Shown: positions 6,098-49,814 of the stretch, one piece after another | How the letters are laid out: every line of letters begins with the position of its first letter | Numbering within the stretch: the first letter of the stretch is position 1 | From: Chiloscyllium plagiosum | Taxonomy: Eukaryota | Length of the DNA: 64,000 nt | Direction of reading: 5' to 3' | NCBI RefSeq assembly: GCF_004010195.1 | Contig: NC_057718.1 | Coordinates: 77,140,079 to 77,204,078, forward strand | Notes under the pieces: model-generated | What the model saw: the letters and a program-made list of their open reading frames with translations, nothing else | Database searches by the model: none | What the model was told of the DNA's origin: nothing | Program-made: the position numbers and the translations under genes

Positions 6098-6137
6098 GCA
6101 GACGTTTCGTCCCCTGTCTAGGTGACATCCTCAGTGC
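6098..6137 (-). ncRNA. Minimal type-I hammerhead ribozyme motif (PLE type)
   Basis: gca-CUGAGGA-u-gucaccu-agac-aggggac-GAAA-cg-UC-ugc: core boxes, stem I gca/ugc, stem II, palindromic ACGU. Confidence 0.8.
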
Positions 6138-6848: not shown

Positions 6849-6888
6849 GCACTGAGGATATCACCTAGACAGGGGACGAAACGTCTGC
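6849..6888 (+). ncRNA. Minimal hammerhead motif, inverted copy with a stem II G>A change
   Basis: gcaCTGAGGAtatcacctagacaggggacGAAAcgtctgc. Confidence 0.7.
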
Positions 6889-21899: not shown

Positions 21900-23020
21900 T
21901 TCAATATTCATTGTATCCCCTCTTTGCCTGTTCCAGTTGTGCAGTATGCAGGACGCAGTTATTCAGCATGCTCTGTCTGGAGTGTGCTACAAGATCTTTT
22001 GAGACAGATCCAAGTTTCAGTACCTCATCTTCAAGAGGCCCATCATCTTGTCCACAATGGCACTGATTAAAGAAGGGGCTATATTGTATCTACATGGTGT
22101 CTTCAGCAGTTGCTTAATGGAGTCATCAGCCATGGTTGCAGACCCTTGTCTCCCAGTAACCAACACTGTAAGGCACCTGGCTCTCCAACTGACACAGCAA
22201 CAAGGGAGTCCTCAAATGTAGGCATCATGGTAGATCCCAGGGTACCTTGTACAGACCTCTAAGATGTGGTACCAATGATTGCAGCTGACTTGCACATTGA
22301 TAGAATGGAACCCTTGCATGAATTCAGCTGCATTTGATATGACACTCATTGTGCAATATGTTGTGGAGGTGCCAGTTTTGGACTGGGGTGGATAAAGTCA
22401 GAAGTCACGCAACATTAGGTTATAGTGCATCTGACAAAGGGGCTGTGCTCTGAAAGCTTATGTGATTTCACATAAACCTGTTGGACTCTAAGCTGGTGTT
22501 GTGTGACTTCTGACTAAGTGCAACATGTGAACAGTCTACTGCACCTGGGGAATCTAGCTATATTGGTAAAGCCTACTGGTAAAGCCCAACTCTGACCTTG
22601 ACATTGGGAAGTAAGATAACACAGTGTGATCTGACACAAATTGTTTTGGTAACAGCCTCAATACATTTGTGGATTGAGGATTGATAGTCTCACATATGGC
22701 CCCAGTAAGTCCTCGGAAGAAGCCAATTGCACAAACGTTTAGTGCAGCTATCATTTTGCCACACACTGGGACAGAATGGCCACCCACTCGTTTAGGCTGT
22801 AGGACTTGCTTCAGCAGGGTTTATTGTCACTGCTGCTTTAGTACAACAAAGGCAAAGAGAAATGGAGGAGGAACAGATGCACCAGCAATCTCAGGACCAG
22901 CAGCAACCTCCAGCAGCTGCTGAACAGCTGAAGAAGTCACTGCTGAAGGGCCCATTAGGATTAGGAGATACAGAAAAGCCCTCAATGCCATTTCAAGACA
23001 AACAAGTCTTGGCAACATAC
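21900..23020 (-). pseudogene. PIF/Harbinger (HARBI1-like) DDE transposase relic
   Basis: Fragments in order: VPVCGKMIAALN, FP(Q)V..DCSHVA, KGFHSINVQVSCNH..ILEVCTRYPGIYHDAYI, WLLGDKG..PWLMTPL, CILHNW. Confidence 0.8.
22362..22517. mobile_element. Non-coding hairpin PLE-derived insertion with a degenerate hammerhead
   Basis: TSD gtgcaa(t/c)atgt at 22351-22361 and 22518-22528; inverted arms; tail shared with 43330 and 27010 elements. Confidence 0.75.
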
Positions 23021-23605
23021 CTTAGCATTACTCACCATTGTGCTGGAAAGTCTATCCCCACAGAGGTGGTGACTGCTGACAACAGCACCCCTTTCCTTTC
23101 CTCCACGGTATCCCATGTCCTCCCATTTACTATCGCCTCCTCCACCTACATGTTAATTTCCTATTTTCATCACTCTTATCCCCTCTGCCATCCAAGTTAC
23201 CTCTAATTCCCAACATTTATTTCTCCAACTTCACTAACACAGAACAGACCCCTAGACCATGTCTTACCCAAAAGGAAACCTGACTATGTCCAGGCCCCTG
23301 ACTAACAGCTGCTCCCCTTAGATTTTGAGACGTGCTCAATTGATTTATGTATTTGCTGCATTTACTGCTGATGCATGCTGAGATTGACATAGCATTAACT
23401 GTACAGCAACATGTCCATACCATGACAGATCACTTTTGACAACCATAATAAGCTGCCTGGTTTTGTGTCATTGCTAAACAGCAAGGTAAGACAGACAGCC
23501 TTTAAGCTTTGGCTGAGACAGGAAAATCCAAGTGAGCATCCAAGTCAGCAGAAAATGATTGAACATTAAGAAACAGAGCAAACTGCCCTGAGATGCTGCC
23601 TGGCC

Positions 23606-26418
23606 CATTCCGTGAGTTAAATGAGATATTATAGCCATTACAGAAACATGGCTAAGAGAGGGACAGGACTGGCAGCTTAATGTGCCAGGGTACAGATGCT
23701 TTAGGTGGGACAGAAGTGGTGGAAAGAGGGGAGGGGAAGTTGCATTTCTGATTAAGCTGAGTATCACAGCAGTAGTCAGAGATGAAATAACTGAAGGATC
23801 ATCCAGTGAGGCTTTGTGGGTGGAGTTGAAAAATAAGAAGAGGATGGTAATGTCATTGGGGTTGTACTATAGACCCCTAAATCATCAGCAGGAATTAGAT
23901 GAACAAATATGCAGGGAAACTGAGGAGACTTGCAGGAGTAAGAGGGTTGTTATAGTAGGGAATTTTAATTTTCGTGACAGACTGAGAATGCCAGAGCATT
24001 AAAGGTTTAAATGGGATGGAATTTGTTAAGTGCATTCAGGAAAGTTTCCTCAAGCAGCAAATAGAGGATCCTACTCAAGAAGGGGCAAAACTTGATCTAC
24101 TCTTGAGAAATAGGGCAGGATAGGTGATGGAGATGACAGTGGAGGAGTACTTTGGGACCAGTGACCATAGTTCTATTAATTTCAAAAAAGTTATGGAGAA
24201 GGACAAAACTGATCCACAGGTTCAAGTTCTAAATTGGGGCAAGGCGATATTTGATGGAATTAGACAGGAGCTTGCAGGGGTTGATTGGATAGTTTGTTTG
24301 CAGGCAAAGGAACCTCCGGCAAGTGGGAGGCCTTTAAAAGTGAGATAGCTGGAGTTCAAGGTCTCTATGTACCTGTGAGGGTGAAAGGCAAAATTGGTAG
24401 GAAGAGGGAATCCTGGATGACGAGAGATATTGAGGATTTGACCAGAAAAAGGGAGACGTGGCTCAGGTACAGGCAGCTGGGATCCAGGAAGTGTAAAGGG
24501 AATACAGGAGTCTACTGGAGAAGGAAATCAGGAGGGTGAAATGGGGGCACAAAATAACATTAGCTGAGAAGATTAGGATGAATCCAAAGAGGTACTTTAA
24601 GTATATTAAAGGAAAAAGAATAACTAGAAAGACAATAAGGCCTTCAAGGAGCAAAGTGGACATGTATGTGTAACTGTAGGGGATGGGCAAGGTTCTCAAT
24701 GACTATTTCTCCTCTGTGTTTATCATGGAGAAAGACATAAAGACTTGGGAACTTGGGGAAGTTAGTGGTGATGTCTTGGGGACAGTCCATATCACAGCAG
24801 AGGAGACGTTGGATGTATTAGAATGTATGAAGGTGGATAAATCTCGTGGTTCTGACCAGATATATCCAAGAAAATACAAGAGGCTAAAAAATAAATTGTG
24901 GGGGCCCTGGCTGGTATTTTTGCATCATCGTTAGCTCTGGGTGAGGTCCCGGAAGTCATGCCATTATTCAAGAAAAACTACATAGAAAAGCCTGGGAACT
25001 ATACACCAGTAACCTAACATCTGGTGGTGGGTAAGTTACTTGAGAAGATTTTGAGGGATATGATACATATTTGGAAATATATCTCTTCTTTATTTCTAAT
25101 CCTACCTCATCAAATCCTGTTTTATTCTATTTGGAAAGACAGGGTTTGATTAGGAGTAGTCAACATGGCTTTGTGAATGGGAGAATCATGCCTCACAAAT
25201 TTGTTAGAGTTCTTTGATGAAGTGACCAGGAAGGTTGACAAGAGCAGAGTGATAGACATAGTCCATATGAATTTCAGTAAGGCCTTTGATGAGTTTCCAC
25301 ATGGTAGGTTGCTCTGGAAGGTTATGTGTCATATAGTCTACAGCAAGCTGGCAAATTGGATACAAAATTGGCTTGTTGGTAGGAAGCAGAGGGTAATAGT
25401 GGAAGGATGCTTGCTGGACAGGAGGCCTGTGACTAGTGGAGTGCCTCATGGGTCGGTGCTGAGCTCATTGCTGTTTGTTATCTATATTAATTATTTGGAT
25501 GAGAACATACAAGGCATGATTAGTAAGCTTGCTGATAATACTAAAATTGGCGGTATCGTGGACAGTGAGGAAAGTTGTCAGAAATTGCATCAGGATCTTG
25601 ATCAGCTGGGAAAGTGGGCCAACAAATGGTAAATGGAGTTTAATATAGATAAGTGTGAGGTCTTGTATTTTGGAAAGTCAAATCAGGGTGGGAGTTTCAT
25701 GGTGAATGGAAGGGCCTTAAGGAGGATAGTGGATAGTGGAACAGAGCGATATTGGAGTTCAGGTTCACAGTTCTCTGAAAGTGGAATCACAGGGCAGTGC
25801 AGAAGGCTTTTGGCACACTGGCCTTCATCAGTCAGGGCATTGAGTATCGAAGTTGGGAAGTTATGTTGCCCAACTTGGAGTATTGTGTTCAGTTTTGGTC
25901 ATCTTCTTATACGAAGAATGTTATTAAACTGGAAAGAATGCAGAAGAAATTGACAAGGATGTTGCCAGGACTCAATAGTCTGAGTTATAGGGATAGGTTA
26001 GACAAGCTAGGATGTTTCTCTTGAAAGTGTAGGAGACTGAGGGGGGAACCTTGTATAAGAGCATGCGTGGCCTGGATAGGGTGAATGCTCTCAGTATTTT
26101 TTCCAGGGTTGGGGACTGGAGGACGAGAGGGCATCAGTTTAAGGTTAGAGGGAAAAGAATAAAAAGGAACCTGAGGGGCAACTTTATTGCACAGAGAGTG
26201 GTAAGCATATGGAATGAACTGCCAATGGAAGTGGTTGAGGCAGGTACATTAATAACATTCAGAAGGCATTTGGACAAATACATGGATAGGAAAGGATTAA
26301 AAGTATGTGGGCCAAGTGCAGGGAAATAGGGTTAGCATGGACAGACATTTCGGTTGGCTTGGACCAGTTTGGGCCACGAGGCCTGTCTCCGTGTTGTAGG
26401 ACTCTATGAGTCTATGAC
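23606..26418 (+). mobile_element. CR1 LINE, near-complete decayed ORF2 plus 3'UTR
   Basis: EN (YRCFRWDRSGGKRGGEVA, GLYYRP), RT (SCLTNLLEFF, FSKAFD, GVPHGSVL, LADNTK), ctatga tail. Confidence 0.95.
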
Positions 26419-27009
26419 TAAACTTATGTGCAAAGTGTCCTTGCAACTGCATTCCAATGAAAGGTGCTGGTGTACTCCAAAGTGCAATATTGAAGTGTAG
26501 AACTGTACTGTAAGTGGATTAGAGGTGTACCATAAGAATTTCAGAAGGCTGTCATGTGTTAACTACCAAGGTTTGTGGAAAGGGGATGTGCGCAGTCAGT
26601 GCCCATACTGAGATATTGATGCCTAGTGATGGAGATCTATAGAGGCAAGCAGCATGTTCGAAATGTCAGAAATTATTGCCATCTAATATCCATCCAACAG
26701 AACAAAAGTAAGAAATTGCATAATAATGAAGTGAGATTAACTAATAATACGATGCTAATACATGAAAATAAGCCTCTTACTAATCCCCAGCAAAAATCCC
26801 ATCTCACCGTTCAAGGTTTGCTTGGGAAGTGGGACTTTTTGCTTTTGAAATCAAGAAGCACCTTGCTGGCCATCTCATGTGATTTTCCCAACTTTTTTGC
26901 TGTGGCCAATTTCCTTTAGGTGCTGGAATTATTCTGCCCATTTCATTTTATTTTGGACAAGAATTTTCTATTTTGTGGTGGCTTTGTTTGAAGACCTTCC
27001 CTATATACT

Positions 27010-27192
27010 GTTAAAAATCACACAACAGCAGGTTATAGTCCAATAGGTTTCCTTGGAAGCACTAGCTTTCGGATCGCTGCTCCTTCACCAGACAGCTAAC
27101 TGCTCCGAAAGCTAGTGCTTCCAAATAAACCTGTCGAACCAAAACCTGCTGTTGTGTGATTTTTAACTTTGTCCACCCCAGTCCAACACCTC
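27010..27192. mobile_element. Non-coding hairpin PLE-derived element with a hammerhead remnant
   Basis: Arms ~27010-27073 and 27104-27167 are reverse complements; gctccGAAAgctagtg; tail tttgtccaccccagtccaacacc. Confidence 0.8.
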
Positions 27193-27760
27193 TGTGACAA
27201 ACTGTAAATTTATTTGATCAAACCACTGGAGTGAAATTTGAACCACAACGCCCTGTGTGAGAGAGATGAGTGTTACCATCTGAGCCGCAGCTGATAAAGC
27301 ACAGTACTTAGGAGGTGGAGTGACCTGTAACAGTAAGGTTTTTACCTTTTCTTACATTTCTCAGGATTTAAAGGCAATTATCTTAATGAGCCAAGAGAAA
27401 TTGTTTTGCTGCACTTCAGTTTCATTTTGGAATACTGCTACTTTTGAGAATGTACCAAATCATTTATCATTAACAGAGGAGTAGACAATAAAGCCAAAGA
27501 ATGCAAACTAAGTCAATTTGTTAACATACTTGATCTGCAGCAAGTCTAAAAATGCAAAAATTTCTTATGATCCATCATCCAGGAAATTTCTCCACAAATG
27601 CTGTTTGACCTTTTGAGATTTTGCAGTATTTTCAGTTTTGATGTTGTTTGACTCACTCTCAGGAGTAAGACTCTACTTATACTTTTTGCTAATAGAGATT
27701 CCCAGAAATTTCCCATATTAGAACAGGATGTAAATATAACCCACTTATTGTTTCTCCCAG

Positions 27761-27860
27761 ACCCATCAGACCTGGAATTAGTGAAAAGCAAAAGACTTTT
27801 GAAGATTTTGTTGAAGAACTACTTAAGGTCGATTCAGAATTAATTCAACAGGATCCGCAG
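27761..27860 (+). CDS. CENPJ: CENPJ-like exon D (100 nt, phase 2-0): PIRPGISEKQKTFEDFVEELLKVDSELIQQDPQ (PN2-3 LID region)
   Basis: Acceptor tttctcccag, donor CAG/gtaaca; resembles CPAP ERPIK..ERKQTFEDYLEEQI. Confidence 0.92.
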
Positions 27861-28227
27861 GTAACAAAGCTATTTTCCAAAGCTATGTACCAAACACAAT
27901 TGAGTTGTTGGTTAAAGTGATTTTATACTTTCAACATTTAAGAAAGATGTATAGAAATTAAGTATTAACTATTGAAAGAAGGATCAGCATCAGTCAGGGA
28001 GAGGTTGGATTTTAGTGCCAACAATGAGTGTGTTGATTATTACTGGGAAGTTAAAATATTAAATATTTCAAACCTGAACGTAATTTATTTGAACTACCCT
28101 TTTTCAAGTTTTAGTGGAAGTGAGATGGAGGGATATGGGCAAGTAACTAACTTGTTCCCAGGAGATATATAGGAAGGCAAGGATATTGCTAAGGTTGGAG
28201 GATTTGAGCAATAGGAAGAGGCTAGCG

Positions 28228-28640
28228 AGTTTTGAAATGTAAGTTTGCTCGCTGAGCTGGAAGATTCATTTTCAGAAGTTTCATTACCATACTAGGTAAC
28301 ATCATCAGTGAGCCTCTGGTGGAGCACTGATGTTAGTGATCTGCTTTCGATTTAGGTGTTTAGGTTTCCTTGGGTTGGTGATGCAATTTCCTGTGGTGAT
28401 GCAATTTCCTGTGGTGACATCATTTCCTGTTCTTCTTCTCAGAGGATGGTAAATGGGGTCTAAATGTTTGTTGATAGAGATCCAGTAGGAATGTCATGCT
28501 TCTAGGAATTCCTGTGCTTGTCTCTGTTTGGCTTGTACTAGGATGGATGAGTTGTCCCAGTCGAAGTGGTGTCCTTCCTCATCTATATGTAAGGATACTC
28601 GTGAGAATGGGTCATGTCTTTTTGTGGCTAGTTGCTCACT
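28228..28640 (-). mobile_element. Penelope-like 3' fragment (GIY-YIG end + pLTR + hammerhead at 28272-28311)
   Basis: EQLATKRHDPFSRVSLHIDEEGHHFDWDNSSILVQAKQRQAQEFLEA; CUGAUGA-uguuacc..gguaau-GAAA; internal 18-bp tandem repeat at ~28378-28430. Confidence 0.85.
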
Positions 28641-30435
28641 GGCTGGGGTAACTAGGGAGAGAATAGGGCCCCTCAAAAATCAGCAAGGCTGTGGATGTGT
28701 GGAGCTACAGGAGATGGGGAGATACTAAATGAGTATTTTGCATCAGTATTTACTGGGGAGAAGGACATGGAAGATATAGAATGTGGGGAAATAGAATGTG
28801 ACATCTTGAAAAATGTCCATATTACAGAGGAGGAAGTGTTGGATGTCTTGAAATGCATAGAAGTGGAAAAATCCCCAGGACATGATCAGGTGTTTCCTAG
28901 AATCCTGTGGAAAGCTAGGGAAGTGTTTGCTGAACTCCTTGCTGAGATATGTGTATCATTGATAGTCAAAGTAAGGTGCTGGAAGACTGGAGGTTGGTTA
29001 ATGTGGTACCACTATTTAAGAAAAGTGGAAGGAAAAGCCAGGAAACTATAGACCAGTGAGCCTGACTTCAGTGATGGGAAAGTTGTTGAAGGGAATCTTG
29101 AGGGACAGGATTTATATGTATTTGGAAAGGCAAAAATTGATTAGGGATAGTCAGCATGGCTTTGTGCATGGAAAATCATGTCTCATGAATGTGATTTGAG
29201 TTTTTTGAAGAAGTAACAAAGAGTATTGATGAGGCCAGAGTGGTGGACGTGATCTATATGGAATTCAGTAAGGCATTTGACAAGGTTCCCGTGGGAGACT
29301 GGTTAGCAAGGTTAGATCTCATGGAATACAGGGAGAACTAGCCATTTGGATATAGAACTAGCTCAAAGGTATCAGACAAGGGATGGTGGTAGAAGGTTGC
29401 TTTTCAGACTGTAGGCCTGTGACCAGTGGAGTGCCACAAGGTTCAGTGCTAGGTACACTACTTTTCGTCATTTATACAAATGATTTGGTTGTGAACATAG
29501 GAGGTAATGTCAGTAAGTTTGCAGGTGACACCAAAATTGGAGGTGTACTGGACAGTGAAGAAGGTTACCTCAGAGTACAACAGAATTTTGATCAGATGGG
29601 CTAATGGGCTGAGGAGTGGGAGATGGAATTTAATTTAGATAAATGCAAGGTGCTGCATTTTGGAAAAGCAATTTAGAGCAGGACTTATACACTTATTGGA
29701 AAGGTCTTGGGGAGTGTTACTAAACAAAGGGACCTTGGAGTGCAGGTTCATACTTCCTTGAAAGTCAAGTCACAGGTAGATAAGATAGTGAAGAAGGCAT
29801 TTGGTATGCTTTCGTTTATTGGTGTGAGCATTCAGTATAAGAGTTGTGAGGTCGTGTTGTGGCTATACAGGACATTGATTAGGCCACTTTTGGAATATTG
29901 CATGCAATTCTGATCTCCTTCCTATCGGAAGGATGTTGTGAAACTTGAAAGGGTTCAGAAAAGAGTTCCAAGGATGTTGCCAGGGTTGGAGGATTTGAGC
30001 TATCGGGAGAGACTGAATAGGCTGTGGCTGTTTTCCCTGGAATGTCAGAGGTGGAGGGGTGACCTTTTAGAGTCTTATATAGTCATGAGGGGCATAAATA
30101 GACAAAGTCTTTTTCCCTGCGGCGGGGGAGTCCAGAACTAGAGTGCATAGGTTTAGGGTGAGAGGGGGAGGATATAAAAGGGACCTAAGGGGCAGCTTTT
30201 TCACACAGAGGGTGGTACGTGTATGGAATGAGCTGCCAGAGGAAGTGGTGGAGGCTGGTAAAATTGCAACATTTAAAAGGCATCTGGATGGGTATAATAA
30301 CAGGAAGGGTTTGGAGGGATATAGACTAAATGCTGGCAAATGGGACTTGATTAATTTAGGATATCTGGTCGGCATGTACGAGTTGGACTGAAGAGTCTAT
30401 TTCTGTGCTGTATATCTCTATGACTGTATATGACT
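28640..30435 (+). mobile_element. CR1 LINE, 5'-truncated
   Basis: [35 protein letters not shown], atgact tail. Confidence 0.95.
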
Positions 30436-31165
30436 CTCTTTAGATTATGCATCATTTTTGAACTGTTGTAATAAACTACCTTAAAACCATTTATTAATTC
30501 TTGACCACCTATTTTGGGTAATTTTTGATTCTCAAATTTTATAACTCAATCCAACATTCCTTTCCCATAATAGGACTTCCTACCCTCAAGTCATAATATG
30601 ACAGACCTGGCCTTATTAATTTCCCCCAGTCCTTCCATTTCCCAGCAGCCCAGCATGGTAACAAGGCCTATCCACTTGACAGCAAGCCAACCCCTCAATC
30701 TGGCTGATCCCCATCTGGAAAATGGAAACAAAAATGTGTTAATTGGATATTATTGTTAACTTCTGCAGGACCTGAGGCAAAGCTAATCTTCTTTTATTCC
30801 TGAATGAAAAACAGCTCCTCTTCTGGTTCCCCAAATGTATCTGATCCAATAGACCAGAAAATATATTATAATCAGTACTAACTGATGTTACAGAATTTAG
30901 AGATCTGAGATGAAACATGGAATAAGGAGCAAATACTATTAAATAAATGAATTGGGTAATAGTGAATATCTTTATCTTCAAGACAGTGATAGCAAAATAG
31001 ATTAGCTACACAGCACTGTCATCATAATTCAGTACTGCAAGAAATCTGCTTGGAGATGGAACTCAATCATTGTATACTGATTGTTGATCACTGTGCCCCA
31101 CCTTTTATCCATTCTGAAAGCATGAAAGTGAACAATATTAACCAAAGGGTGTGATGTTCATAGTC

Positions 31166-31257
31166 GAGAGAGAGGTGCTGCAAAAGCACAGCAGGTCAGG
31201 CAGCATCCAAGGAGCATGAGAATTGATTTTTAGGGTATACGCCCTTCATCAGGAATC
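31166..31257 (-). mobile_element. ~92-bp PLE pLTR fragment with a degenerate hammerhead
   Basis: Homologous to 36795-36887; flanks atgttcat(a/g)gtc at 31154-31165 and 31258-31269. Confidence 0.7.
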
Positions 31258-31494
31258 ATGTTCATGGTCAATAACCTTTGCTTGGTCAAGTGGTAGCTGC
31301 CAGAAACTTTTGCTGGCATTAGTGGTGAAGAAATTTGCAGACTATTATCTAATCCGTGGCAACATTTTTTCTGTTACCTGCTGCATGGCCAGCATGTCAT
31401 CTAGTTTGTTGCCAATGTCTCGCTTGGTTTGTCCCTGTTCTTTTAATGTACAATAGATCTTGTCTCACTTGCTATATCAATTATCTGGACAGAA

Positions 31495-31895
31495 GCATTT
31501 TTTCAAAATTCATTTGTAGGACAAGGGCATTGCTGGTTGGCCAGCCTTTATTGCTCAGCTGTAGCTGTCCTTGAAGGAGTTTTTTAACAATTTTTACAAC
31601 TGAATGCCTTACGAGGCCATTTCAGAGGGTGATTGAGAGGCAATCACATTGCTGTGGGTTGGAGTCACATGTAGACCAGACCAGGTGAAGATGTCCGATT
31701 TCCTTCCCTGAAGGACATTAGTGAATCAGATAGGATTCTCTGACAATTGTTTCATGATCATCAGTAGATTCTTAATTACAGTTATCTTTTTATTCCACCA
31801 TTTGCCACAGTAGCATTCAAACCCAGGTCCCTAGAACATTGACTGAGTTTCTGGATTAATAATCTAATGATGATACTACTAGGCCATTGCCTCTC
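31495..31895 (-). mobile_element. tRNA-derived SINE, family 2
   Basis: tRNA-like head at the right end; shared ggaaggaaatc...acatgtgactcc core. Confidence 0.75.
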
Positions 31896-32384
31896 CCACA
31901 GTAATGATAATGTAATTCCAACTCTTTAGTCACTCTGTATACATTACTAGATTCCTTCTTAGGAATGTGCTTCTCCATGTACAGACTTAGTTCTCTGTGT
32001 ATCCTGTTCAGACTATTGTATGTCTAATGCTTTCATCATCAGTTACATCTTTGTCTCATTTACATTTACCTGTCCTCCAAGAAAGAAAATGCATATGCGT
32101 AAGGGTGAGACCAGAGCAGGGGCCGTAAGTTTAAGAAAATAAGCAATAAATTCACTATGGAATTTACCCGGTTATGACTTGCAAAGTGCCACAGGCATCA
32201 GTGTTGGTGCCTCAACAAATAGTTAGTTAGACAAAAAGACAGCGTAGCATGTCCAAAGTTTGCTGACAATGCAAAGCTAGGTGAGACTGCAGATGTGAGG
32301 AGGACACAGAAGCTGTAAAGACATTCCAACAGATTGGATGGGCAACAGGATGGGAAATGGAATATAATGTGGAAAAGTGAGGAG

Positions 32385-32840
32385 TCAATGGTGTCATGGT
32401 AAAGTTACTGAATTAGTAACCCAGAAACCTATGCTACTGTTGTAAGGATATAGGTTAAACTCCAGTACAGTAACTGTGCGTTCAATTAAAATTCAGTTAA
32501 TAACTGTAAAATTGAAACGTTGAAACTATAGGAAAGGTTTGGAGGGATAGGGGTCAGGTGCAGACAGGTGGGACTAGTTTAGCTTGAGAACGTGTTCACC
32601 ATGGACTGGTTGGATTGTTGTGAAACCCATTTGATCCACTAATATCCTTTAGCGAAGGAAATCTGTTGGTTTTATTTCCACATGACTCCAGACCCACAGC
32701 AGTGTCATTGGCTCTTAACTGCACTTTGAAGTAGTCTGGTAGTCATTCAGTTCAAGAGACATTTCAGGATAAAGAACAAATTCTAGCATTGCCAATGAAG
32801 CCCACATCCCATGATCCCATGAAACAAAGAATAAAAAATG
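32385..32840 (+). mobile_element. tRNA-derived SINE, family 2, with an inserted CR1 3' tail (~32525-32612)
   Basis: Same core as 31495-31895; tail gcccacatcccatga. Confidence 0.65.
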
Positions 32841-32897
32841 TTCACTTTAGTTGTAAGAATGCCAAATTTCTTTTCAAAACAGTTTGAAGTTGTGTAC

Positions 32898-33270
32898 AAA
32901 AACAGAAATTGCTGGAGAAACTCAGCAGGTCTAGTAGCATCTGTGCAGTGAAAGCAGAGTCAATGTTTCTGGTTCATTGACCCTTCATTGGAGAATTGAA
33001 TGGTCACTGGACCCAAAATGCTAAGTTGCCAGACTTGCTGAATTTATAAAGTCATTAGATCATACAGAACAGAAAGTCTTTTCATTTCAACAAGTCCATG
33101 CTGAACATAATCCCAAACTATACCAGTCCCATCTGCCTGCTCCTGACCCATATCCCTCCAAACCTTTCCTATGTATGTACTTATCTAAATGTCTTTTAAA
33201 TATTGTAATTGTAATCATAATTTCTATTTTTGTTTTAGAATTACAGCATCTGCAGTTTGATGTTTTATTT
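32898..33270. mobile_element. Degenerate hairpin PLE-type element, interrupted by a minus-strand CR1 tail (~33050-33215)
   Basis: aaattgctggagaaactcagcagg...gacttgctgaattt inverted arms; related to 1005-1115. Confidence 0.5.
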
Positions 33271-33984
33271 TAATATTGAACTTGGAAATGTTGACATTCA
33301 GAGAGCCTAAGTCTATTCATACAAGGAATTTGGAAAATCAGTATGCAGGTACAGCAAGTACTTGGGAAAGAAAATAGCATGTTAGGGTCTATTTTGACTC
33401 TTTTGTTCTTCTGAGAGTGCTTAGAATGTTGCTGCCCATAAGGAGGCATTAAAGCAAATAACATCGATGTAATTCTTGGGGGAGTTAGATAAGTTCATAA
33501 TATAGAAAGGAAAAGAAGAATATGCTCATGGGGTTAGATGAAGAAAGATGAGAGGAGACTTTAATGGGATATAAACATAGGCATGGAAATAAATAATGGC
33601 CTGTTTCTCTTTCTGTAAATATTATATTTTGCTGTGTAAGGGCACATCAGAAAAATGAGAACAGGAGGTGCCTAGCATAGAGAAAGCGGTTTCAGCAGGA
33701 GATAGGTGTAGGCAAGTGTAGGTATGAGTATTTTTATTTGGAGTAAAAAGACTTTGTGATTTGAAGATTCAAAATCAATTTAGGATGAAATAATATGCTG
33801 AGGTTAAAAACATTATTGTTAAACCTGAGGCAGAAAATGAAGAGGGAATGGAATCAATGATCTGTTTATAGAATTTATGGCAGGGTTGATGGTGGCTTCA
33901 ATCTTCTGATAATTTAACAAGAGACAGTTAAAGACTCATAACATAGTGACAGCAGAAAGTTGGTGGGATGTGGTGGAGAGAAAA

Positions 33985-34620
33985 GGGTGGTGAAGAAACC
34001 ATTTGCATGTTTGTTTTCATTGCTCAGGTTGTTTAGTGTAGGAGTTGGGACATCATTTAAGATTGTACAAGACATTGGTGAGACCTCTTCTGGAGGTGTC
34101 CAGTTCTGGTTGCCCTGTTATAGGAAGGATCTTATTAAGCTGGAGAGGGTTCAGAAAATATTTACCAGGACATTGCCAGCAATGGAAGATTTGAGTTATG
34201 AGGAGAGGCTGGATAGGCTGGGACTTTTTTCACTGGAGCATAGGAAGTTGAGGGTGATGTTATAGAGATTTATATAATCATGAGATGTATGGATAAGGTG
34301 AATAGCAGGTGTCTTTTCCCTACAGTGGGGGAACTTAAAGATTAGGGGACTAGGAGATGTATTTTTAAGGTGAGAGGAGAAAGATTTTAAAAAGACATGA
34401 AGAGTAACTTTTTTACATTGGGTTATTCGTATGTGGAATGAACTTCTCGAGGAAGTAGTAAATGAGAGAAAATTACAATGTTTAAAAGATATTTGGGTAA
34501 GTACATGATTAAGAAATGTTTGGAGAGATATGGGCCAAGTGCAGGCAGGTGTGACTAGTTTAGTTTGTTCGGCATGGACTAGTTGGACCGAAAAGTAGGA
34601 CTGTATGACTATGACTCTAT
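33985..34620 (+). mobile_element. CR1 3' fragment
   Basis: VQFWLPCYRKDLIKLERVQKIFTR; atgact tail. Confidence 0.9.
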
Positions 34621-36756
34621 AATTGGGAGTCATCAATATGCATTTTTATATTTTTTTAAATTTTCTCAGCTATACCTCACTCTTTCTCTGCCTGTCCCAA
34701 ACAAAAGCATGTTTTCTAACACTTTCCCAACCTGATACCCATTTTTACTGCTAAAAATCTCCCCTCACCTGCCCCTTTCCAATTAAGCCCACTGTAGATT
34801 ATTCTCATGATCCTTCATCTGCACTGAGATAGTTATCTTCCTTTGGGGGTCAGTCGGAGCAGCAACAGCAGCAACATCTGAGCAAAGGAGAACGAACCTG
34901 AGGGTTAACAGCAGCAGTGATAGCAGGATAAATATTTTAAGGTGTGGGGTCTGGACCAAGGTAAGTCTGAGCAGCGACAGCAGCAATAACAGAGTGAAGG
35001 AGTGCAAGTCTGGGTCTGTGTGGATCTGAATCTGGGGGGGCAGCTGTGGAGGTGACATTATGATTCAAAAAAGTGACATAGGCTTGGCTGCTCAGGAACC
35101 AGGTTTGCAGACTGAGTGAGAGTGGCTGGAGAGAGATAAAGTACTTACTTTTCATTGGTGTAGTCTACTAGGAATAAAGTGCAAGTGCAAGGGACCTGAC
35201 TTTGGTGAAGAGTGAGTTAGGTTGTGTAATCAGTTCCTGAATTATCATCTGCAGTTGATAAGGCTGAGGAGAACTCAGCTTTGTGGAATGCTCCTCCTGC
35301 AATACATGGAAAATCAGAGACATTTCCATGGAGTAACGGATGGACTCACTATTAATCATTCATGGGTCTGAGAATGTTGTGGATAGCACACTTAGTGAGA
35401 TAGTCACACCACTACTTATAGATACACAGATACAGAAGAGTTGGGTGACCACCAAGAAGACTAGTAAACATGGCCAGGTAGAGCAGGAATCCTCTGTGGC
35501 CATTCCCCTCTCAAACAGGTATAATGTTTTGGATACTGTTGAATGGATGGTCTCTCAGGAAAGTAGCAACAGCAACAAGATCAGTGGCACCAATGCTGAC
35601 ACTGTTGTATAGTGGGGAGATTGAAGTGTAGGTGAGCAGTATTGATGGATGAATCTACAGTCTGGGACATGGACAGATGTTTCTGTGGCTGCAAGAGAGA
35701 CTCTAGGATGTTGTGTTGCTTCACTGGTGCCAGAGTTAAGGATGCTTCAGAGTAGGCAAGAGATATTCCGAAGAAGGAGGGTGAGCAGCCAGAGATTGTG
35801 GTCCATTTTGATACTAATGATATAGGGAAACAGAGAGATGTAAATGGAGTTCAGGAAATTAGGTAAGAAGGATGTCAGGATTACTACCTGTGCCACATTC
35901 CAGTGAGGCTAGGAATAGAAATATAGTACAATTAAAATGTGGCTAAAGAGCAGTTGTAGGAGGGAGAACTTTAGCCATGTAGATCATTAGGATGTCTTCC
36001 AGGGTAGATGGGTCTTGTATGAAAAAGACAGGTTGCACCTAAACTGGAGGTGTACCGATATCCTGGCAAGTGCTACACAGGGAGTGTTTAAACTAGGGTG
36101 GCAGGGAGGCAGGGACTAGAGCAGTAGGTCAGCAAGTAAAATAACTGAGGAGAAGTCAGAAACTAAGGCCAGTAAGATGAAGAGGAAGAACAAACTGAAG
36201 ATGGTAGGACTGGCAGTCTGTGATGTACTCGTCTTAATCTGAGGAGTCTGACAGGTAAGGCAGATGAACTTAGAGTTTTGATTATTTCAAATAACCATGA
36301 TGTTGTAGCCATTACAAAGACTTGGCTAAGAGAGAGAAAGAGAGAGAGAAACAAGACTGGCAAGTTAACGTTTCAAGCGAGACAGAGACTGATGTAAAAG
36401 ATGTGGGGGAGTTATGTTTTTGATAAGGGAGAATATCACAGCTGTACTGATGGAGGACACCTTGAAGAGTACATCCGGCGAGGCCATATGGGAAGGGTAG
36501 GATTGTACCTAGAGTCTTTGATGGGATTGCACTACAAAGCTTCCAAAAGTGAGCGGGTGATAGAGAAACATGAATATGGACAGATTAAGGAAAAATGTTA
36601 AAACAGGATGGTTATTTTGGTGGGTGATTTTAATTTCCTCTATATTGACTGGAATTCATTTAGCATTAGGGGCTTGGATGGTGGGGCAATTTGTTAACTG
36701 TGTCCAGGATGGTTCTTTGAAACAAAATGTAAATAGTCCAATTAGGGGAAATCAAC

Positions 36757-37045
36757 TAGGAGAAATTAAGGACCGCAGATGCTGGAGATCAGAGTCAAGA
36801 GTGTAGTGCTGGAAAAGCACAGCGAGTCAGGCAGCATCCAAGGAGCAGAAGAATCGACGTTTCGGGCAAAAGCCCTTCATCAGGAATGAGGCTTGTGAGC
36901 CAAGGGGTGGAGAGATAAATGGGGGCGGGGAAAGTGGGACTGGAGGGAAGGTAGCTAAGAGTGCAATAGGTGGATAGGTGGGGGTAATGGTGATAGGTCG
37001 GGGAGGAGGGTGGAGCGGATAGGTGGGAAGGAAGTTGGAAGGGAA
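36757..37045 (-). mobile_element. PLE 3' end with an intact hammerhead motif at 36852-36887
   Basis: auuc-CUGAUGA-a-gggc-uuuu-gccc-GAAA-cg-UC-gauu; same family as 59584-60693 and 62373-62503. Confidence 0.8.
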
Positions 37046-37049
37046 CGAG

Positions 37050-37597
37050 GGGTCTTAAAAAAATCCAGGCTCCCAATCGGCTGGGTTGATACCGAGATGA
37101 AAAGGGTATTGTGAGGCCTTTTTCTTTAAATGTAAACAGGTGAGACTTCAGGCGAAAGCTTTCATGTTTTAGAAGTAACCTGTATAATGAAAGAGAAGTG
37201 GTCAGTCCTGCAAGCTGAAGTCTTGGTTGAGTGAGTTCAGCAGTGGGCTATGTGGAAACAGGCTGCTAAACTCTCTGTCCTTCTAACTGCGACCTGTAAG
37301 CCTCTTTCATTTTTACTGTGTTTAAGGGGTTTGTTTATTGGGACTGTCGCACGTATTTTTCGGAACAGCATAATTAAGTCTAGTTTGGATAGACTGAGGT
37401 CTGTGGTATACTATATTCTATTCTTTGTGTTTCATTCCATAATTTTGTGAATAGATTTTTGTCTGTTTTAAAACTTGGTAGTCAACATAACTAACTTCGG
37501 GTAATTTTCACTGTACGCTTACCGAAACAAATTGCAAAGTTAGGGTCTGGGTTACTTGCTTAAGAATGTTTTGAATGATCTGACCTAATCCATAACA
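37050..37597. mobile_element. Possible LTR fragment
   Basis: Non-CR1 block inside the CR1, ending in ...ccataaCA where CR1 ORF2 resumes; left end undefined. Confidence 0.4.
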
Positions 37598-37675
37598 CTG
37601 TATCAGGGTAAAGGAACATCTGGTATTTCGGCATCTTTTGAAGGCAAGTTGATTAGAGTTCAGGACCAGCATATA

Positions 37676-38850
37676 TAGAGTCATAGAATCATAGAATCCT
37701 ATAGCACAGAAACAGGCTTTTTGACTCAAACTGGTCCATGCTGATGAAAATGTTCATCCACGCTAAGCCCATTTCCCTGCACTTAGCACATATCCTGCTA
37801 AACCTTTCCTGTCCATGTGTTTGCCCAAATGCCTTTTAAATGTTGTTACTGTACCCGCCTCAACTACTTCTGCTGGCAGCTCATTCCAAATGCGTACTAC
37901 CCTCTGTGTAAAAACGTTGCCCCTCAGGTTGCCTTTTATTCTTTCCCCTCTAACCTTAAACTGATGCCTTCTAGTCCTTAATTCCCCAACCCTGGGAAAA
38001 AGACTGTGAGTATTCACCCTATCCATGCCTCTCATGGTCTTACACACTTCTATAAGGCCTCCCCTCAGTCTCCTATTCTCTAAAGAAAAAAGTTCTACCT
38101 TTTCCAACCTCTCCCTATAACTCAGCCTGTTGTGTTCAGGCAACATCCTTGTAAATTTCTTCTGCACTCTTTCCAATTTAATAACATTCTTCCTCTAGCA
38201 AGGTGATCAAAACTGAACACAATATTCCAAGTGCGGCCTCACTAACGCCCTGCACAACTGCCCATATAACTTCCCAGCTTCTATACTCAATGCCCTGACT
38301 GATGAAGGCCAATGTGCCAAATGCCTTCTTCACTGCCCTGTCTACCTATGACTCCACTTTTAGAGAACCGTGCACCTGAACTCCAAGGTCCCTCTCTTCC
38401 ACATCCTTCTTAAGGCCCCACCTTTCACCATGAAACTCCTACCTTGTTTTGACTTTCTGAAATACAGTACTTCACACTTATTTATATTAAACTCCATTTG
38501 CCATTTCTCGGCTCACTTCCCCAGCTGATCAAGGTGCTGCTGCAATTTCTGATAACCTTCCACAGTGTCCACACTACGGCCTATTTTAGTGTTATCTGCA
38601 AAGTTACTAATCATGCCTTGTACATTCTCATCCAAATCATTAATCTAGATTACAAACAGCAATGGGCCCAGCACCAATCCCTGAGGCACTCCACTATTCA
38701 CAGGCTTCCAGTCAAATAAGCATTACTCTCTACTATTACCCTCTGCTTCCTACCATCAAGCCAATTGTGTATCCAATTTGCCAGGTCCCCTTGGATTCCA
38801 TGCAATCTAACTTTCTGGAGCAGCCTACCATGTAGAACTATCAAAAGTCT
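37676..38850 (-). mobile_element. CR1 LINE, 5'-truncated, nested antisense in an older CR1
   Basis: ERVQKKFTRMLP...NVFTQRVVRIWNELP; (tctatga)n tail at the left end. Confidence 0.93.
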
Positions 38851-40113
38851 TGTTCTTGTGAAAATGAAGGATAAGGATGGTAAGTTTCGGGAACCTTGGA
38901 TGACGAGAAATTGAGAGCTTAGTCAAAAAGAAAAAGGAGGCTTATGTAAGCTTTAGGAAACTGAAACAAACTGCTCTTGAAGAATACAAAGAAAGCAGAA
39001 AAGAACTCAAACAAGGAATTAGGAAGGCTAAAAGGACCATGATATGTCTTTGGCAAACAGGATTAAGCAAAATCCCATGGCATTTTATCTATATATAATG
39101 GACAAGAGGGTGGCTAGGGAAAGGGTAGGTCTGCTCAAGGACAAAGGAGGAAATTTATGCATGGAGTCAGAGGATATGTTTGAGGTCCTTAATGAATACT
39201 TTGCATTGGTATTCATAAAGGAGAAGCACATCGTAGATGGTGAATCTCAGGAGGGGTATATGGACATAAAAAAGGAGAAGGCATTGTGTGTTTTGAAAAG
39301 CATTAAGGACCTGATGGGATCTATACCACAATGCTAATGGGGCAGTTGGGGCCTTGTACAAAATCTTTGTATTCTCTTTTGTCACAGGAGAGATGCCAGA
39401 GGACTGGAGAATAGCCAAAGTTGTTCACTTGATAAGAAGGGTAACAGGGATAATCTGGGAAATTACAGGCTGCTGATCCTTACATCAGTGGTAGGGAAAT
39501 TATTGGAAAAGTTTCTTAGGGATAGGGTTTACTCCCATTTAGAAAAATATATACTTACTAGCAATAGGCAACATAGCTTTGTGCAGGGGAAAGTTGTCTC
39601 TCAAACTTGATAGAGGTTTTTGAGGAAGTGACAAAGATGTTTGATGAGGGCAGGGCATTGGATGTTATCTACATGGATTTTAGCAAAGCCTTTGACAAGG
39701 TCCCTCATGGCAGGCTGATACAAAAAGTGAGGTCCCATGGGATCCGCAGTGAGCTGGTAAGATGGATGCAGAACTGGCTTAGTCATGGATGATAGAGAGT
39801 AATGGTGAAAGAGCGTTTTTCTGACTGGAGATTTGTGACCAGTGGCAATCCACAGAAATCAGTGCTCAGATGCCTGTTGTTTGTAGTATTTATATATGGA
39901 GAACGAAGGTAGCCTGATAAGTAAGATTGTGGATGATACAAAGATTGCAGATAGTGAGGAGGATTACCAGAAGGATACAGCAAGATGTAGATAGACTGGA
40001 GACTTGGACAGAGAAATGGCAAATGGAGTTTAATCCAGCCAAATGGCTAGGTGATGCGTTTTGCAAGATCTAGTACAAGAGGGAGTATACAGTAAATATC
40101 AGAGCCCTTAGTG

Positions 40114-42255
40114 CAGGGGTGGGCAATTAATTCTTCCAAGGGGCCACATGAGAAACCTGAGTTGTGTTGGAGGGCCGAACCAACAATAAATTGTACATAA
40201 TTCTGCTCAGTATTAATTTTTCTCCCATTGTAAAAAGTACTAAATTATATAGTTTTGCACTGAAACTTATAATCAAAAGAATAAGGATATTCTGTTACAA
40301 TAAAGATATGAAATTGTAGAGTAGGTCAAATATGGAAGAAATAAACAATAAAAACAATAATTTCAGTATTTCATTTTATTTTTAACATGTTAATCTCACA
40401 AACCAATAATGAAGAGTTGTTTCATTATTGTTCAGTATTACAAACAACAAACAACTCTATACAAAAAGCAATAAGTGCTTTTGATGTTTTTCAGTTCATT
40501 TTGCTTGTTTAGTGAGAAAACTCCAGTCTGTTTTGGGCTTGAACAAGTGCACTGAAAACTGGTTGAATGTCTGAGGTGGATATGCGAAGGACAGCTGAGA
40601 GGTGATCATCAGTGATAGAGGATCTGTATTTGGATTTGTTGAACTTCATCACTGAGAATGTCTGTTTGCATATATAGGTAGATACAAAGAGGACTAGAAT
40701 CTTCTGAGCATGCCTCCTCATGTGTGGAAAGTTCTCCTCTTTGAGGGAAGAGTAAAAATCAAGCAGTGAGACTGACCTAAAGTACTCTGCCAGAAGTGTG
40801 TCAGACTGCAGGTCAATGAGTTCAAGCTGAACATCACTAGGTGCATTCTCCACATTGCATGTAAATGGGGAAAAAATCTTGTGCATTTCATTCTCAACAG
40901 TTTTAAAGTCTTGAAATCACCTTGAAAATTCACCATGCAGTGCTTCTAACACAGATGAGTACCTGTGGAGGTGATCAGCTGAAGGTGCGGCTTCCTTCAG
41001 TATTGGCAAGTGGGTGAGAATGTTGTCCTCCATTTGGCTTGAGAGAAGCTGCAACTTTCTCATAAAAGCCTTCACCAAGTTGTACATTTCATGCACAAAA
41101 AGGCCCTTGCACTGCAGTTTCACATTTAGTTCATTCATAAGTGCAGTCAAATCAACAGCAAAACCAAGGTCTGCAATCCAGTCTGCATCTGAAAGCTGTG
41201 GAATGCCATTCCCTTTCTTCACACAGAAATCTTGAATCTCTTCTGTCAGGTCCCATACACTTTTCAGCATTTTGCCCAGGCTGAGCAGTAGCCTATGTCA
41301 TGATGTTCAGTCTCATTTTCCTCCAAAAGTGCAACAAACTGCCTGTGATTCAAAGCTCTTGCCCTGTTGAAGTTAACTATTTTAGTTACAACATCAACCA
41401 CATGGTTAATTTTTAACACTGACTTACACAACACTTCCTGATATATAATACAATGCAAAAATACCAATTTCTGTCAGGGTTAATTTCTGTCACTTTATCC
41501 TGCATTCTCTTTAAGAGTCCAACATTTTTTCCCATTAGATTTGGACAACCATCCGTTGTCACACCCGCCAGCTTGTCCTGTTTTCGTCCCGAGTCCAAAC
41601 ATGCATTTACTTCCGTGAACAAATCATTACCAGTTGTTGTTCCTTTCATTGACTGCATGGCTGCCAGCTCCTCCGTGATTTTAAAGTCCGTAGTTACCCC
41701 ACGTACAAAGATGAGTAGCTGGGCTGTGTCACATACGTCGCAGCTCTCATCCAAAGCCAAGGAAAAAAAGTCAAAGTTGACCGCTCTGTGCTGCAGCTGA
41801 AGCTCCAGATTTCTCATGATGTCCCCATTCCTTCTTGTTACAGTGCGTTGGGAGAGGGGCACATTCTCAAATGCCTCTTTTTTTCTCCGGGCATATTAGT
41901 TCTGCAGAGTCCAACAAGCACTCCTTAATAAACTCTCCTTCAGAAAACGGTTTACTGTTTCTGGCTATTTTGTGGGATATGACATAACTTGTCTTGGCGT
42001 GAGCTGACATTTTGAGGGCTAGCCAGCAAGCATCACTTTTAGCTGTTCACGCACGCACGCACATACACGCGCATGTGCGTCCATATGTAAATAAACAAAG
42101 CATCCTTTTCAAAACAAAAGCAACACAGTTGTATTGCGTGCATTGCGTAAATACTTTTTCATTTATGTTCTAATTTAAGATTGACCTCATGCGGGCCGGA
42201 CAGGAATGACCCAAGCGCCGGATATGGCCCACGGGCCGTAAAATGCCCAGGTCTG
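40114..42255 (-). mobile_element. hAT DNA transposon (Buster/Charlie-type), internally deleted
   Basis: Perfect 8-bp TSD ccttagtg (40106-40113, 42256-42263) with central TA; imperfect TIRs CAGGGGTGGGCAATT / CAGACCTGGGCATTT. Confidence 0.95.
40509..42030 (-). pseudogene. hAT transposase (GTF2IRD2/EPM2AIP1-like family), frameshifted, N-terminus missing
   Basis: FSLALDESCD..DTAQLLIFVRG, GVTTDGCPNL, FLHCII.QEVLC, LMNELNVKLQ, STYICKQTFSVMK..KSKYRSSITDDHL. Confidence 0.92.
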
Positions 42256-43329
42256 CCTTAGTGACATTGACATACAGAGCAATCTAGTTGTACAAATCCA
42301 CACTTCCCTGAAAGTGGCAACACAGTAGATAAGGCGATCAAGAAGGCATATGGTATGTTTGCCTTTATTGGTTGGGGCACAGAGTATAAAATTGGCAAGT
42401 CATGTTGAGCTGTATAATACTTTAGTTAGGCCACATTTGGAATATTTTGTGCAGTTCTGATCACTAGCTACCAGAAGGATATGAAGGCCTTTGAAGATGA
42501 TACAGGAACAGTTTACTAAGATTTGGAGGGTTTTTTTCACTTGAGCATCAAAACATGAGGGTGACGTGATAGAAGCTTACAAAATTATGAGAGGCATAGA
42601 TAGTCAGAGTCTCTTTCCCATGATAGAAATGTCAATTACTAGCAGACATAGGTTTAAGTTAAAAGGGGGAAGTTTGAGGGAGATATGAGTGGTAAACATC
42701 TGGAATGTGCTGCCAGAGGAGGTGGTGGAGGCAGATACAATAGCAATGTTTAAGAGGAATTTGACAGATATATGAATAGGTGGGGAATAGAGGGATGCAG
42801 AACATGCTGAGGCAAAAGAGTTTTAGTTTTGAAAGGCATCGTGTTGGTGCAGTCATGGTGGGCCAGCAGGCCTGTTCCTGTGCAGTATTGTTCTTTATTC
42901 TTGGTTCTTCCAATTCACTTCTCCATCCCTACTCATCATCCCATTTCCTCCAATCCACCCTCTGGCTTCCTCTTACTTTTGTCTTTGATTTTCTCCTATT
43001 CTTCTTAACTCATCTATGTCCAGTTACTTTAATCTATTTTCCATTGACTCAGTTTGACCCAGAAAGTATGCTTAGCATTTGACTTCCTTTATGAGATTAG
43101 GAAATATATCACAGATGTACATTAAAAGGCACACGTTGATGTACATTAAAATCTGACAAACCAGTTTAATCAATGATATAATTTACAGTCTATTTCAAGC
43201 CTCATACAACAAGGATCTAATGTAACACCCACACCCTGTTCACCAGAATGTATCTTTGATGGTAAATAATTTGTAATTTTATCACAGATTGCTAACTAAT
43301 ATCCACAATCATATATGGTGAAAATATTG

Positions 43330-43671
43330 ATTTGGAGATGCCGATGTTGGACTGGAGTGTACAAAGTTAAAAATCACACAACACCAAGTTATAGGCCAAC
43401 AGGTTTATTTGGAAGCACTAGCTTTCGGAGCGCTGCTCCTTCATCAGGTGGTTGTGGAGTATAAGATCGTAAGACACAGAATTTATAATGAAAGTTTAAT
43501 GAATTTATAATGAATTTATAATGAAAGTATAATTTCAGTTACATCACACTGTAAACTTTTGTTATAAATTCTGTGTCTTACGATCTTAGATTCCACAACC
43601 ACCTGATGAAGGAACAGTGCTCTGAAAACTAGTGCTTCCAATTATACCTGTTGGACTATAACCTGGTATTG
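43330..43671. mobile_element. Non-coding hairpin PLE-derived element with two opposed hammerhead motifs
   Basis: Arms ~43375-43488 and 43562-43675; TSD ggtgaaa(a/c)tattg at 43317-43329 and 43672-43684; aatttataatg repeats in the spacer. Confidence 0.85.
43416..43450 (-). ncRNA. Minimal hammerhead motif, intact core
   Basis: cac-CUGAUGA-a-ggagc-agc-gcucc-GAAA-gc-UA-gug; stem I cac/gug; palindromic AGCU. Confidence 0.8.
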
Positions 43672-43844
43672 GGTGAAACTATTGCCATTCATTTAATCTC
43701 CAGTTTTAATTGCTTGACTAGTCAGGAACACAGGATGGCCAAAAACCATGGAATTCTGTAAGTCAGGATTCTCCCCACAGTGTAGCTTTAACTCCAAAGT
43801 ATGTTCATAACATCACTAATTGAATTCACAAAATCACAAATGTT

Positions 43845-49221: not shown

Positions 49222-49814
49222 GTATGTATCTGTGAAGTGAAATTATTCAAATTCACACTCGAGCTGTGCAACTACAATTCATAATTTTGCTCATTTTAGC
49301 AAGTAGAGTATGGTGGAATGTATATAGGAAGTTCTGTTGTTGGAAGAGAATCTTTGAGGAGTGAGGAAGATATATTCTGATGTACTGCTTATAACTTTGA
49401 TTAAAGATTGATCGAAACTCTGAGCACTTAATACAAATAATCCTGCTTACACCACTTGACTGCTGCAACTTGGTGATGATGACCTTGATAACTCTCAAAC
49501 AAGCAGAATTGCAGATAAACAAATTGTGGTCATTGCTAAAAGCGACCTATTCTGATACACACTATGGTATTTAAATGGGTTTATGTATAAAGTCATTCTC
49601 AAGTAAAGTCTTTGAAAGATTAAAAGGAGAAAAAACATGACTATATTGCTGTACCATTCCTTTGTAGTAATTAATCTCCCGTGACGTTGCATACAGGCAA
49701 AAAAAGAAAAGTATGTGTGCACTAAATATGTTATATTTTGCCAATGCCATAAATAGTTGCAATAATTTTATAATAAGCAAGGAAAAAAATGCCAAAACAA
49801 GTCCTTCCTTATTA

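Follow-up and report, generated by a model that had tools for sequence, protein, structure and literature searches.

Three Non-Coding Hairpin Insertions

The 64-kb window, that is, the whole stretch of DNA that was analysed, contains a CPAP/CENPJ-like exon at 47466–49235, remnants of LINE and hAT elements, and several insertions folded as hairpins. Three of the hairpins, E1 (22362–22517), E2 (27010–27192), and E3 (43330–43671), are non-coding, measure 156, 183, and 342 bp, respectively, and share one layout, in which a tail, an arm, and an inverted arm are arranged head to head. They match one another with BLASTN E-values of 1e-8 to 1e-28; E2 and E3 are up to 90% identical (E ~1e-28), whereas E1 is only 75–83% alike to either of them, and E1 forms a diverged, separate subfamily. 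A profile built from the six arms recovers only those six arms within the window, and the longest stop-free frames in E1, E2, and E3 span 32, 42, and 59 amino acids. The description given in the earlier note, that of three related elements built as tail, arm, and inverted arm without coding sequence, is confirmed. The paired parts of the arms comprise 34 nt at 82% identity in E1, 64 nt at 89% identity in E2, and ~145 nt in E3, where identity is 89% over an ungapped 125 nt.

In E1, the 34-nt tail (22362–22395, minus strand) lies outside the paired arms, is present on one arm only, and aligns to 43330–43364 of E3. The short tail-bearing arm that follows (22396–22429, minus strand) ends downstream of the hammerhead, at the E3 equivalent of ~43394, and the inverted arm (22428–22517, plus strand) carries a decayed minimal hammerhead with its core at 22431 (plus strand) and starts where the 5′ strand of stem I begins. 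The order is reversed in E2, which begins with the inverted arm (27010–27098, minus strand, inner end approximate), containing a mutated hammerhead core whose first base is 27091, and continues with the tail-bearing arm (27099–27167, plus strand), which starts within hammerhead stem II and retains only the 3′ half of the ribozyme, and with a partial tail (27168–27192, plus strand). E3 is the largest of the three. Its tail and tail-bearing arm (43330–43498, minus strand) include the usual short end of the family at 43361–43365 and an intact minimal type I hammerhead (43416–43450, minus strand), recognized with a descriptor taken from PMC4209133. The junction of E3 (43479–43533, plus strand) consists of a tandem 11-nt unit, present in four copies at 11-nt spacing, which probably represents filler produced by template slippage; a loose contig end at 43487 matches the other E3 arm. 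The inverted arm (43530–43671, plus strand) contains a decayed hammerhead at 43603 (plus strand), and its end falls ~14 nt before the usual short end is reached.

E1 is flanked by an 11-bp TSD (22351–22361 and 22518–22528, plus strand) and E3 by a 13-bp TSD (43317–43329 and 43672–43684, plus strand), each with one mismatch, as had been claimed for two of the elements; the last two bases of the left E3 copy also match the usual tail end of the family at 43328. Among 400 random position pairs used as a null set, the score of the E1 TSD was reached by two and that of the E3 TSD by none. The flanks of E2 yielded no convincing TSD. The tail is one-sided throughout, with 34 nt in E1, a partial copy in E2, and 49 nt in E3 relative to its own shortened arm. 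A tail common to all three elements had been proposed, but the tail of E2 is shortened and lacks the ggagatgcc end.

Hammerhead Ribozyme Remnants

The hammerhead in the tail arm of E3 has a stem I of 3 bp, then the core and an unpaired base, then a stem II of 5 bp, and its stem III is palindromic; cleavage is predicted to occur between 43419 and 43418 on the minus strand. The hammerhead in the inverted arm of E1 passes the same descriptor with one core mismatch, and those in the inverted arms of E2 and E3 are mutated; together with the half-ribozyme of the E2 tail arm, remnants are thus found in four arms besides the intact one. All three elements carry hammerhead remnants, as the earlier note had described, but only one of the six arms retains an intact motif, and the tail arm of E1 has none. 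Stem I of E1 differs from that of E3 by one compensatory pair change, which, as a single pair, is weak evidence. At the gathering score, no Rfam family was found within the 64-kb window, and no hammerhead match was returned either for the window at that score or for E3 at E-values up to 10.

Junctions, Arm Ends, and Age

When projected onto E3 coordinates, the junction lies at ~43394/43450 in E1, at 43431–35/43447–55 in E2, and at 43498/43537, with the 11-nt tandem filler, in E3; the three turn-around points are distinct, as the earlier note had reported. The tail-less arm extends further in the 5′ direction than the tail arm in all three elements. At the outer side, the limit of the inverted arm lies at 43365–43366 (E3 coordinates), which corresponds to the short site, in E1 and E2, and at ~43379, off the usual short site, in E3.

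The two arms of one element are 47/60 identical in E2 and 60/69 identical in E3, and the tail arm of E3 is 61/69 identical to the inverted arm of E2. The arms have thus diverged equally within and between elements, as expected of old copies that decay independently. A variant at the equivalent of E3 position 43384 is present in both arms of E2 and absent from both arms of E3. In addition, contigs from two related organisms cross the unique flank into the E3 tail, over 43030–43354 with 8 differences in organism B and over 43030–43372 with 8 differences and a 10-nt gap in organism C, indicating that E3 is an old, shared insertion.

Abundance and Joints in Public Sequencing Contigs

The unique flank and the tail arm of E3 (43030–43545) served as bait at a likeness of 80 against public sequencing runs, from which three contig sets (X1, X12, and X11) were taken, representing three organisms (A, B, and C) and three studies; X1 may derive from the same species as the window. 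In all, 4 of 24 listed runs were used, and the fourth, X22, a raw polyA single-cell RNA run sampled at ~6 in 100, placed 0 reads on the bait, an outcome that carries no weight for or against expression. The contig pieces placed on this bait numbered 55,270, 65,283, and 69,972, and the summed contig depth was 12–41 on the flank and 6–16 million on the arm. The resulting arm/flank depth ratio of 3–6 × 10^5 is a rough measure of great abundance and not a copy number; with 55,000–70,000 contig pieces per run on a single arm, the very high copy number that the three neighbouring elements had been taken to imply is supported. Forms that are rare are lost from contigs, and a hairpin with perfect symmetry would break off a contig instead of producing a joint.

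The contig ends reveal two outer ends. Among the rows listed, 683, 1374, and 1347 contig ends fall at 43328 in X1, X12, and X11, respectively, and a second outer end at 43361–43365 gathers 376–423 ends per row in X12 and X11 (18 of 856 rows listed), so that the two clusters lie ~35 nt apart. On the inner side, the best 15 of 159 joints include nine that connect opposite strands, at nine distinct pairs of positions, two skips, and four steps back, three of which return by 40–47 nt and one by 60 nt, at low depth. Among these 15, there is no dominant common fold-back point, and the top joint reaches ~20x the flank depth, which amounts to less than 0.01% of the arm depth. The joint 43373/43477 stands at ~20x the flank depth and 43417/43449 at ~15x in X1, and the junction pair of E1 (43394/43449–50) recurs in all three runs at ~3–4x.

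The positions of these joints are not random. One side lies at 43449–43456 in six of the nine opposite-strand joints (among the best 15 of 159), loose contig ends accumulate at 43449–43450, and inner ends are concentrated where the hammerhead has its 5′ edge; two joints, at 43415 and 43417, are located 1–3 nt from the predicted cleavage site. Given the non-random joints and the recurring E1 pair, small amplified sub-lineages may exist. Beyond 43450, depth drops to 7–11% at 43462–43479, a decrease that is partly explained by a subfamily with other upstream sequence, as seen in the loose-end consensus, and by the edge of the E3 filler at ~43498.

Larger Hairpins and the Search for a Parent Element

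Two longer hairpins of like design serve as comparators. The one at 6027–6923 (minus strand), from another PLE (Penelope-like retroelement) family, again consists of a tail, an arm, and an inverted arm, and has a 14-bp TSD and a minimal hammerhead; its arms are 95% identical and its tail is 36 nt long. Its interior is 64–95% identical to the nine proteins that were found, which are all named from carpet sharks and of which several bear an RT, and covers the RT thumb and the GIY-YIG-like end of these proteins, the latter being scored by Pfam at E 0.027, below the cut-off. The attribution of the window to a shark-type genome is based on these named matches. The repeat and tail of this hairpin encode residues 1–56 of one gene model, corresponding to where the ORF begins. 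The other comparator, at 59584–60693 (minus strand), belongs to a third family and has an exact 15-bp TSD, an internal assembly gap, and an RT N-terminal remnant at 60403–60600. This remnant is linked to DUF8422 clusters (29–40% of members, Atlas), and DUF8422 is also found in the RT proteins that match the 6027–6923 hairpin. Pfam and PDB sequence searches with two short coding remnants of the larger hairpins returned no family. Within the window, hairpins of this design thus range in size from 156 bp up to 1.1 kb, and the longer ones include coding sequence.

A tblastn comparison of 126 PLE-type RT relatives with E1–E3 gave no convincing match, the best E-value of 0.006 having been obtained against a database of only these three short sequences. 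A homolog search from the RT of the 6027–6923 hairpin retrieved mostly flatworm proteins, and no credible parent, among the matches listed (120 of 1617). No ORF combining RT with a C-terminal GIY-YIG domain was found flanked by the pLTR of E1–E3, such parts being linked only for the family of the 6027–6923 hairpin. Scans of viral, metagenome, and prokaryote genome contigs with the E1–E3 pattern gave 0 matches, and a literature search, mostly of open-access papers, retrieved no description of the E1–E3 family or of a self-propagating Penelope hairpin.

Truncated Penelope-Like Insertions as the Most Probable Origin

The unit formed by EN+ PLEs comprises a pLTR, an adjacent inverted and 5′-truncated copy, a one-sided tail of 30–40 bp, and a TSD (described in the available parts of PMC8557442, PMC3846280, and PMC8969392). 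E1–E3 display an inverted 5′-truncated copy, a one-sided tail, a TSD (in two of the three), a minimal hammerhead, and variable truncation, and their two outer ends ~35 nt apart match a PLE tail bounded by two RT start sites, as reported in the portion of PMC11167929 at hand. E1–E3 are very probably old, separate, dead-on-arrival stubs of an EN+ PLE and not self-propagating units, the assignment of their parent to the PLEs resting on analogy with these systems. Truncation with inversion of a PLE, one of the two origins offered in the earlier note, is supported by the differing junctions, the clustered outer ends, and the neighbouring hairpins that bear coding sequence. As the outcome that would speak against a self-propagating family, the note had named breakpoints unique to each copy and derivation of every copy from a catalogued Penelope family, together with a lack of RNA evidence, and this is largely what was found: the breakpoints differ, but the parent family of E1–E3 was not identified.

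In the proposed mechanism, which draws on the anatomy of the insertions and on in vitro results for the anole element, an RT/GIY-YIG protein would nick both target strands 11–13 bp apart, and each nick would serve as primer for a cDNA started within the pLTR RNA, at either of two sites ~35 nt apart, so that one arm would receive a tail and the other would not. Both cDNAs would be left incomplete, in many cases ending close to the hammerhead's 5′ edge; repair or template switching would then connect their inner ends head to head, with the addition of filler in E3, and leave the TSD. The hammerhead would travel as part of the pLTR and decay later.

Joining may instead have involved a single molecule, with a cDNA or an antisense RNA folding back and priming its own extension, an idea that PMC3846280 advances for PLE junctions of the head-to-head type; in its available part, that paper favours self-priming on an antisense template. 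The tandem filler at the E3 junction fits polymerase slippage, and variants common to both arms of one element fit one template; however, the tail-less arm is longer at its 5′ side in all three elements, so that it contains sequence for which a tail arm simply folding back would offer no template, and nicking of both strands with extension from two start sites has been demonstrated in vitro (accessible text of PMC11167929). This route is on balance unlikely and, being limited to the joining step, is compatible with an origin as truncated PLE stubs. A more distant departure would be a non-autonomous fold-back family, whose whole hairpins are transcribed and put back into the genome in trans by PLE machinery, each keeping the junction of its master copy. 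Sequence bounded by pLTRs can be a substrate for PLE proteins acting in trans (PMC3846280, in part), putatively non-autonomous PLEs have been described (PMC8557442, in part), and the joints 43373/43477, 43417/43449, and 43394/43449 exceed single-copy depth, but a hot spot, orthologous loci, or duplication of the flank would give equally small counts, and the smallness of even the top joint relative to the arm depth, in a contig-based view of the best 15 of 159, argues against such a family. The 43384-equivalent variant shared by both E2 arms and neither E3 arm would suit inheritance from a master, yet it is also expected if both cDNAs share one source locus, and the three junctions in the window all differ; a fold-back family is accordingly improbable.

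The resemblance to metazoan non-LTR retrozymes, in which a small circular RNA arises through self-cleavage of a hammerhead and gives rise to genomic copies, lies in a length of 150–340 bp, a type I hammerhead, low GC content, and TSDs longer than 4 bp, all of which overlap the description in the available text of PMC7229834. However, each of E1–E3 is one inverted unit lacking direct tandem monomers, its hammerhead is of the minimal type, and the ribozyme is damaged, partial, or missing in five of the six arms; release of a monomer of unit length would take two hammerheads in direct orientation, which none of the elements has, and a retrozyme origin is highly improbable. The retrozyme-like, self-copying fold-back element that the earlier note had offered as its other origin is thus disfavoured by the three differing junctions, the lack of a dominant joint, the lack of direct tandem monomers, and the minimal form of the hammerhead. 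Long inverted repeats are also typical of MITE-like DNA transposons and hairpin miRNA genes, and plant miRNA precursor models do score on the E3 hairpin. The ends of E1–E3 are asymmetric, with a tail on one side, and TSD lengths and centres vary, in contrast to a fixed TIR with a fixed-length TSD; the Rfam score of 75 bits compares with a gathering score of 200 bits, and such scores reflect any long hairpin, and an origin of this kind is extremely improbable. At E-values up to 10, E3 gave 11 Rfam matches, all below gathering and mostly to long-hairpin miRNA models, which were rejected.

Comparison with Known Systems

The closest counterparts of E1–E3 are the EN+ PLEs Penelope/Poseidon and Neptune, with which, as far as the available descriptions extend, they share head-to-head copies, a one-sided tail (34 nt in E1), TSDs, variable truncation, and a hammerhead within the repeat. 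The published examples carry ORF sequence and have TSDs of 8–10 bp, whereas E1–E3 are non-coding with TSDs of 11–13 bp, and the E1–E3 family differs further in being extremely abundant and reduced to two repeat ends. Similar arrangements are documented in the available part of PMC4209133, where pairs of minimal hammerheads are located 100–700 bp apart on opposite strands and most dispersed motifs are ascribed to truncated PLEs. Like the minimal hammerheads of metazoan PLEs in that study, the E3 motif is of type I, has an unpaired base ahead of stem II, and is palindromic at positions 15.2–16.2, although its stem I of 3 bp and stem II of 5 bp are shorter than those of the Schistosoma families treated there. 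Sharks are not mentioned among the minimal-hammerhead hosts in the portion of PMC4209133 consulted; Penelope is listed among the repeats of the whale shark in that of PMC8455134.

The Poseidon element PAc of Anolis carolinensis provides a biochemical counterpart, for which the accessible part of PMC11167929 reports both-strand nicking and extension in vitro with two internal start sites bounding the tail. In both PAc and the E1–E3 family, the tail is bounded by two ends ~30–40 nt apart, a hammerhead lies upstream, and an AC-rich stretch surrounding the ends is predicted to form a stem-loop, the fold being weak in the E1–E3 family. The PAc ORF starts inside the hammerhead, whereas the corresponding frame of the E1–E3 family stops after 8 codons, and a hint of a start codon appears only just past the tail end, in a weak loose-end consensus. 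The same text does not treat the inverted junction; it states that hammerhead cleavage was not required in vitro and was not seen in the RNA-seq data of the anole study. Metazoan non-LTR retrozymes, as presented in the available part of PMC7229834, are direct tandem repeats of 150–450-bp monomers with canonical hammerheads and abundant linear and circular RNA of unit length. They resemble E1–E3 in being small and non-coding with a type I hammerhead and long TSDs, and differ from them in that E1–E3 are single and inverted, with mostly decayed minimal hammerheads whose stem I has 3 bp and whose stem III lacks a loop.

As found, E1–E3 would constitute an ordinary, abundant family of truncated PLEs, with an architecture known since at least 2013, and their practical value lies in the data set, as a census of junctions could test the origin of the inverted pLTR and hammerhead cleavage in vivo. 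A bolder and unlikely reading takes the stubs, which on this view number in the hundreds of thousands, as a genomic record of PLE insertion that includes cleavage by the minimal hammerhead in vivo. A dimeric RT-endonuclease would prime two cDNAs, one from each nick; one cDNA would reach the 5′ end of the RNA just upstream of the hammerhead, giving the pile-up at 43449–43456, and the other would often run off hammerhead-cut RNA, giving the joints at 43415 and 43417. If this were true, the junctions would provide in vivo evidence of hammerhead cleavage during transposition and would explain the inverted pLTR. At the level of annotation, stubs of this kind could be mistaken for miRNA hairpins or MITEs.

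A Tail Joint and Loose Ends of the E1–E3 Family

In the public contigs, the usual long tail end of the short non-coding hairpin insertions E1–E3 (43328, on E3 coordinates) is connected with the short end by an opposite-strand joint, 43328/43362, which was seen in six contigs of organism B and five of organism C and was not seen in organism A; this joint possibly represents a tail-to-tail arrangement. The consensus of the loose contig ends is weak both before 43328 and behind 43449 (agreement of about 0.4). It suggests that some copies extend beyond the tail end and have a start codon there. It also suggests a common subfamily whose sequence immediately upstream of the hammerhead (behind 43449) differs and is complementary to the bases around the predicted hammerhead cleavage site.

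Other Hammerhead-Bearing Elements

A hairpin of another hammerhead family (59584–60693) is flanked by an exact 15-bp target-site duplication (TSD) and contains a reverse transcriptase (RT) remnant and an assembly gap (N); in both of its arms, the hammerhead core lies only a few bases from the stop of the arm. Seven more short pieces of this family, none hairpin-shaped, are dispersed in the window (9621–9671, 10592–10671, 31129–31255, 32909–32986, 36757–36886, 57747–57783, and 62372–62498), the last of which ends about 8 nt beyond the hammerhead core and adjoins an A-run.

The Poseidon-like Penelope-like element hairpin at 6027–6923, with a 14-bp TSD, has arms of 244 nt that are 95% identical to each other, and retains RT-thumb and GIY-YIG remnants. 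An older, related hammerhead-bearing fragment lies at 28279–28634.

Gene and Other Repeats

An open frame of 589 codons (47466–49235) matches the CPAP tubulin-binding domain and is probably the large exon of a CENPJ/CPAP-like gene. A broken hAT transposase remnant on the minus strand (40509–41895) matches the C-terminal dimerisation domain. Two local inverted repeats overlap (31598–32752 and 32528–33172), and the second sits amid LINE-like 3′ fragments.
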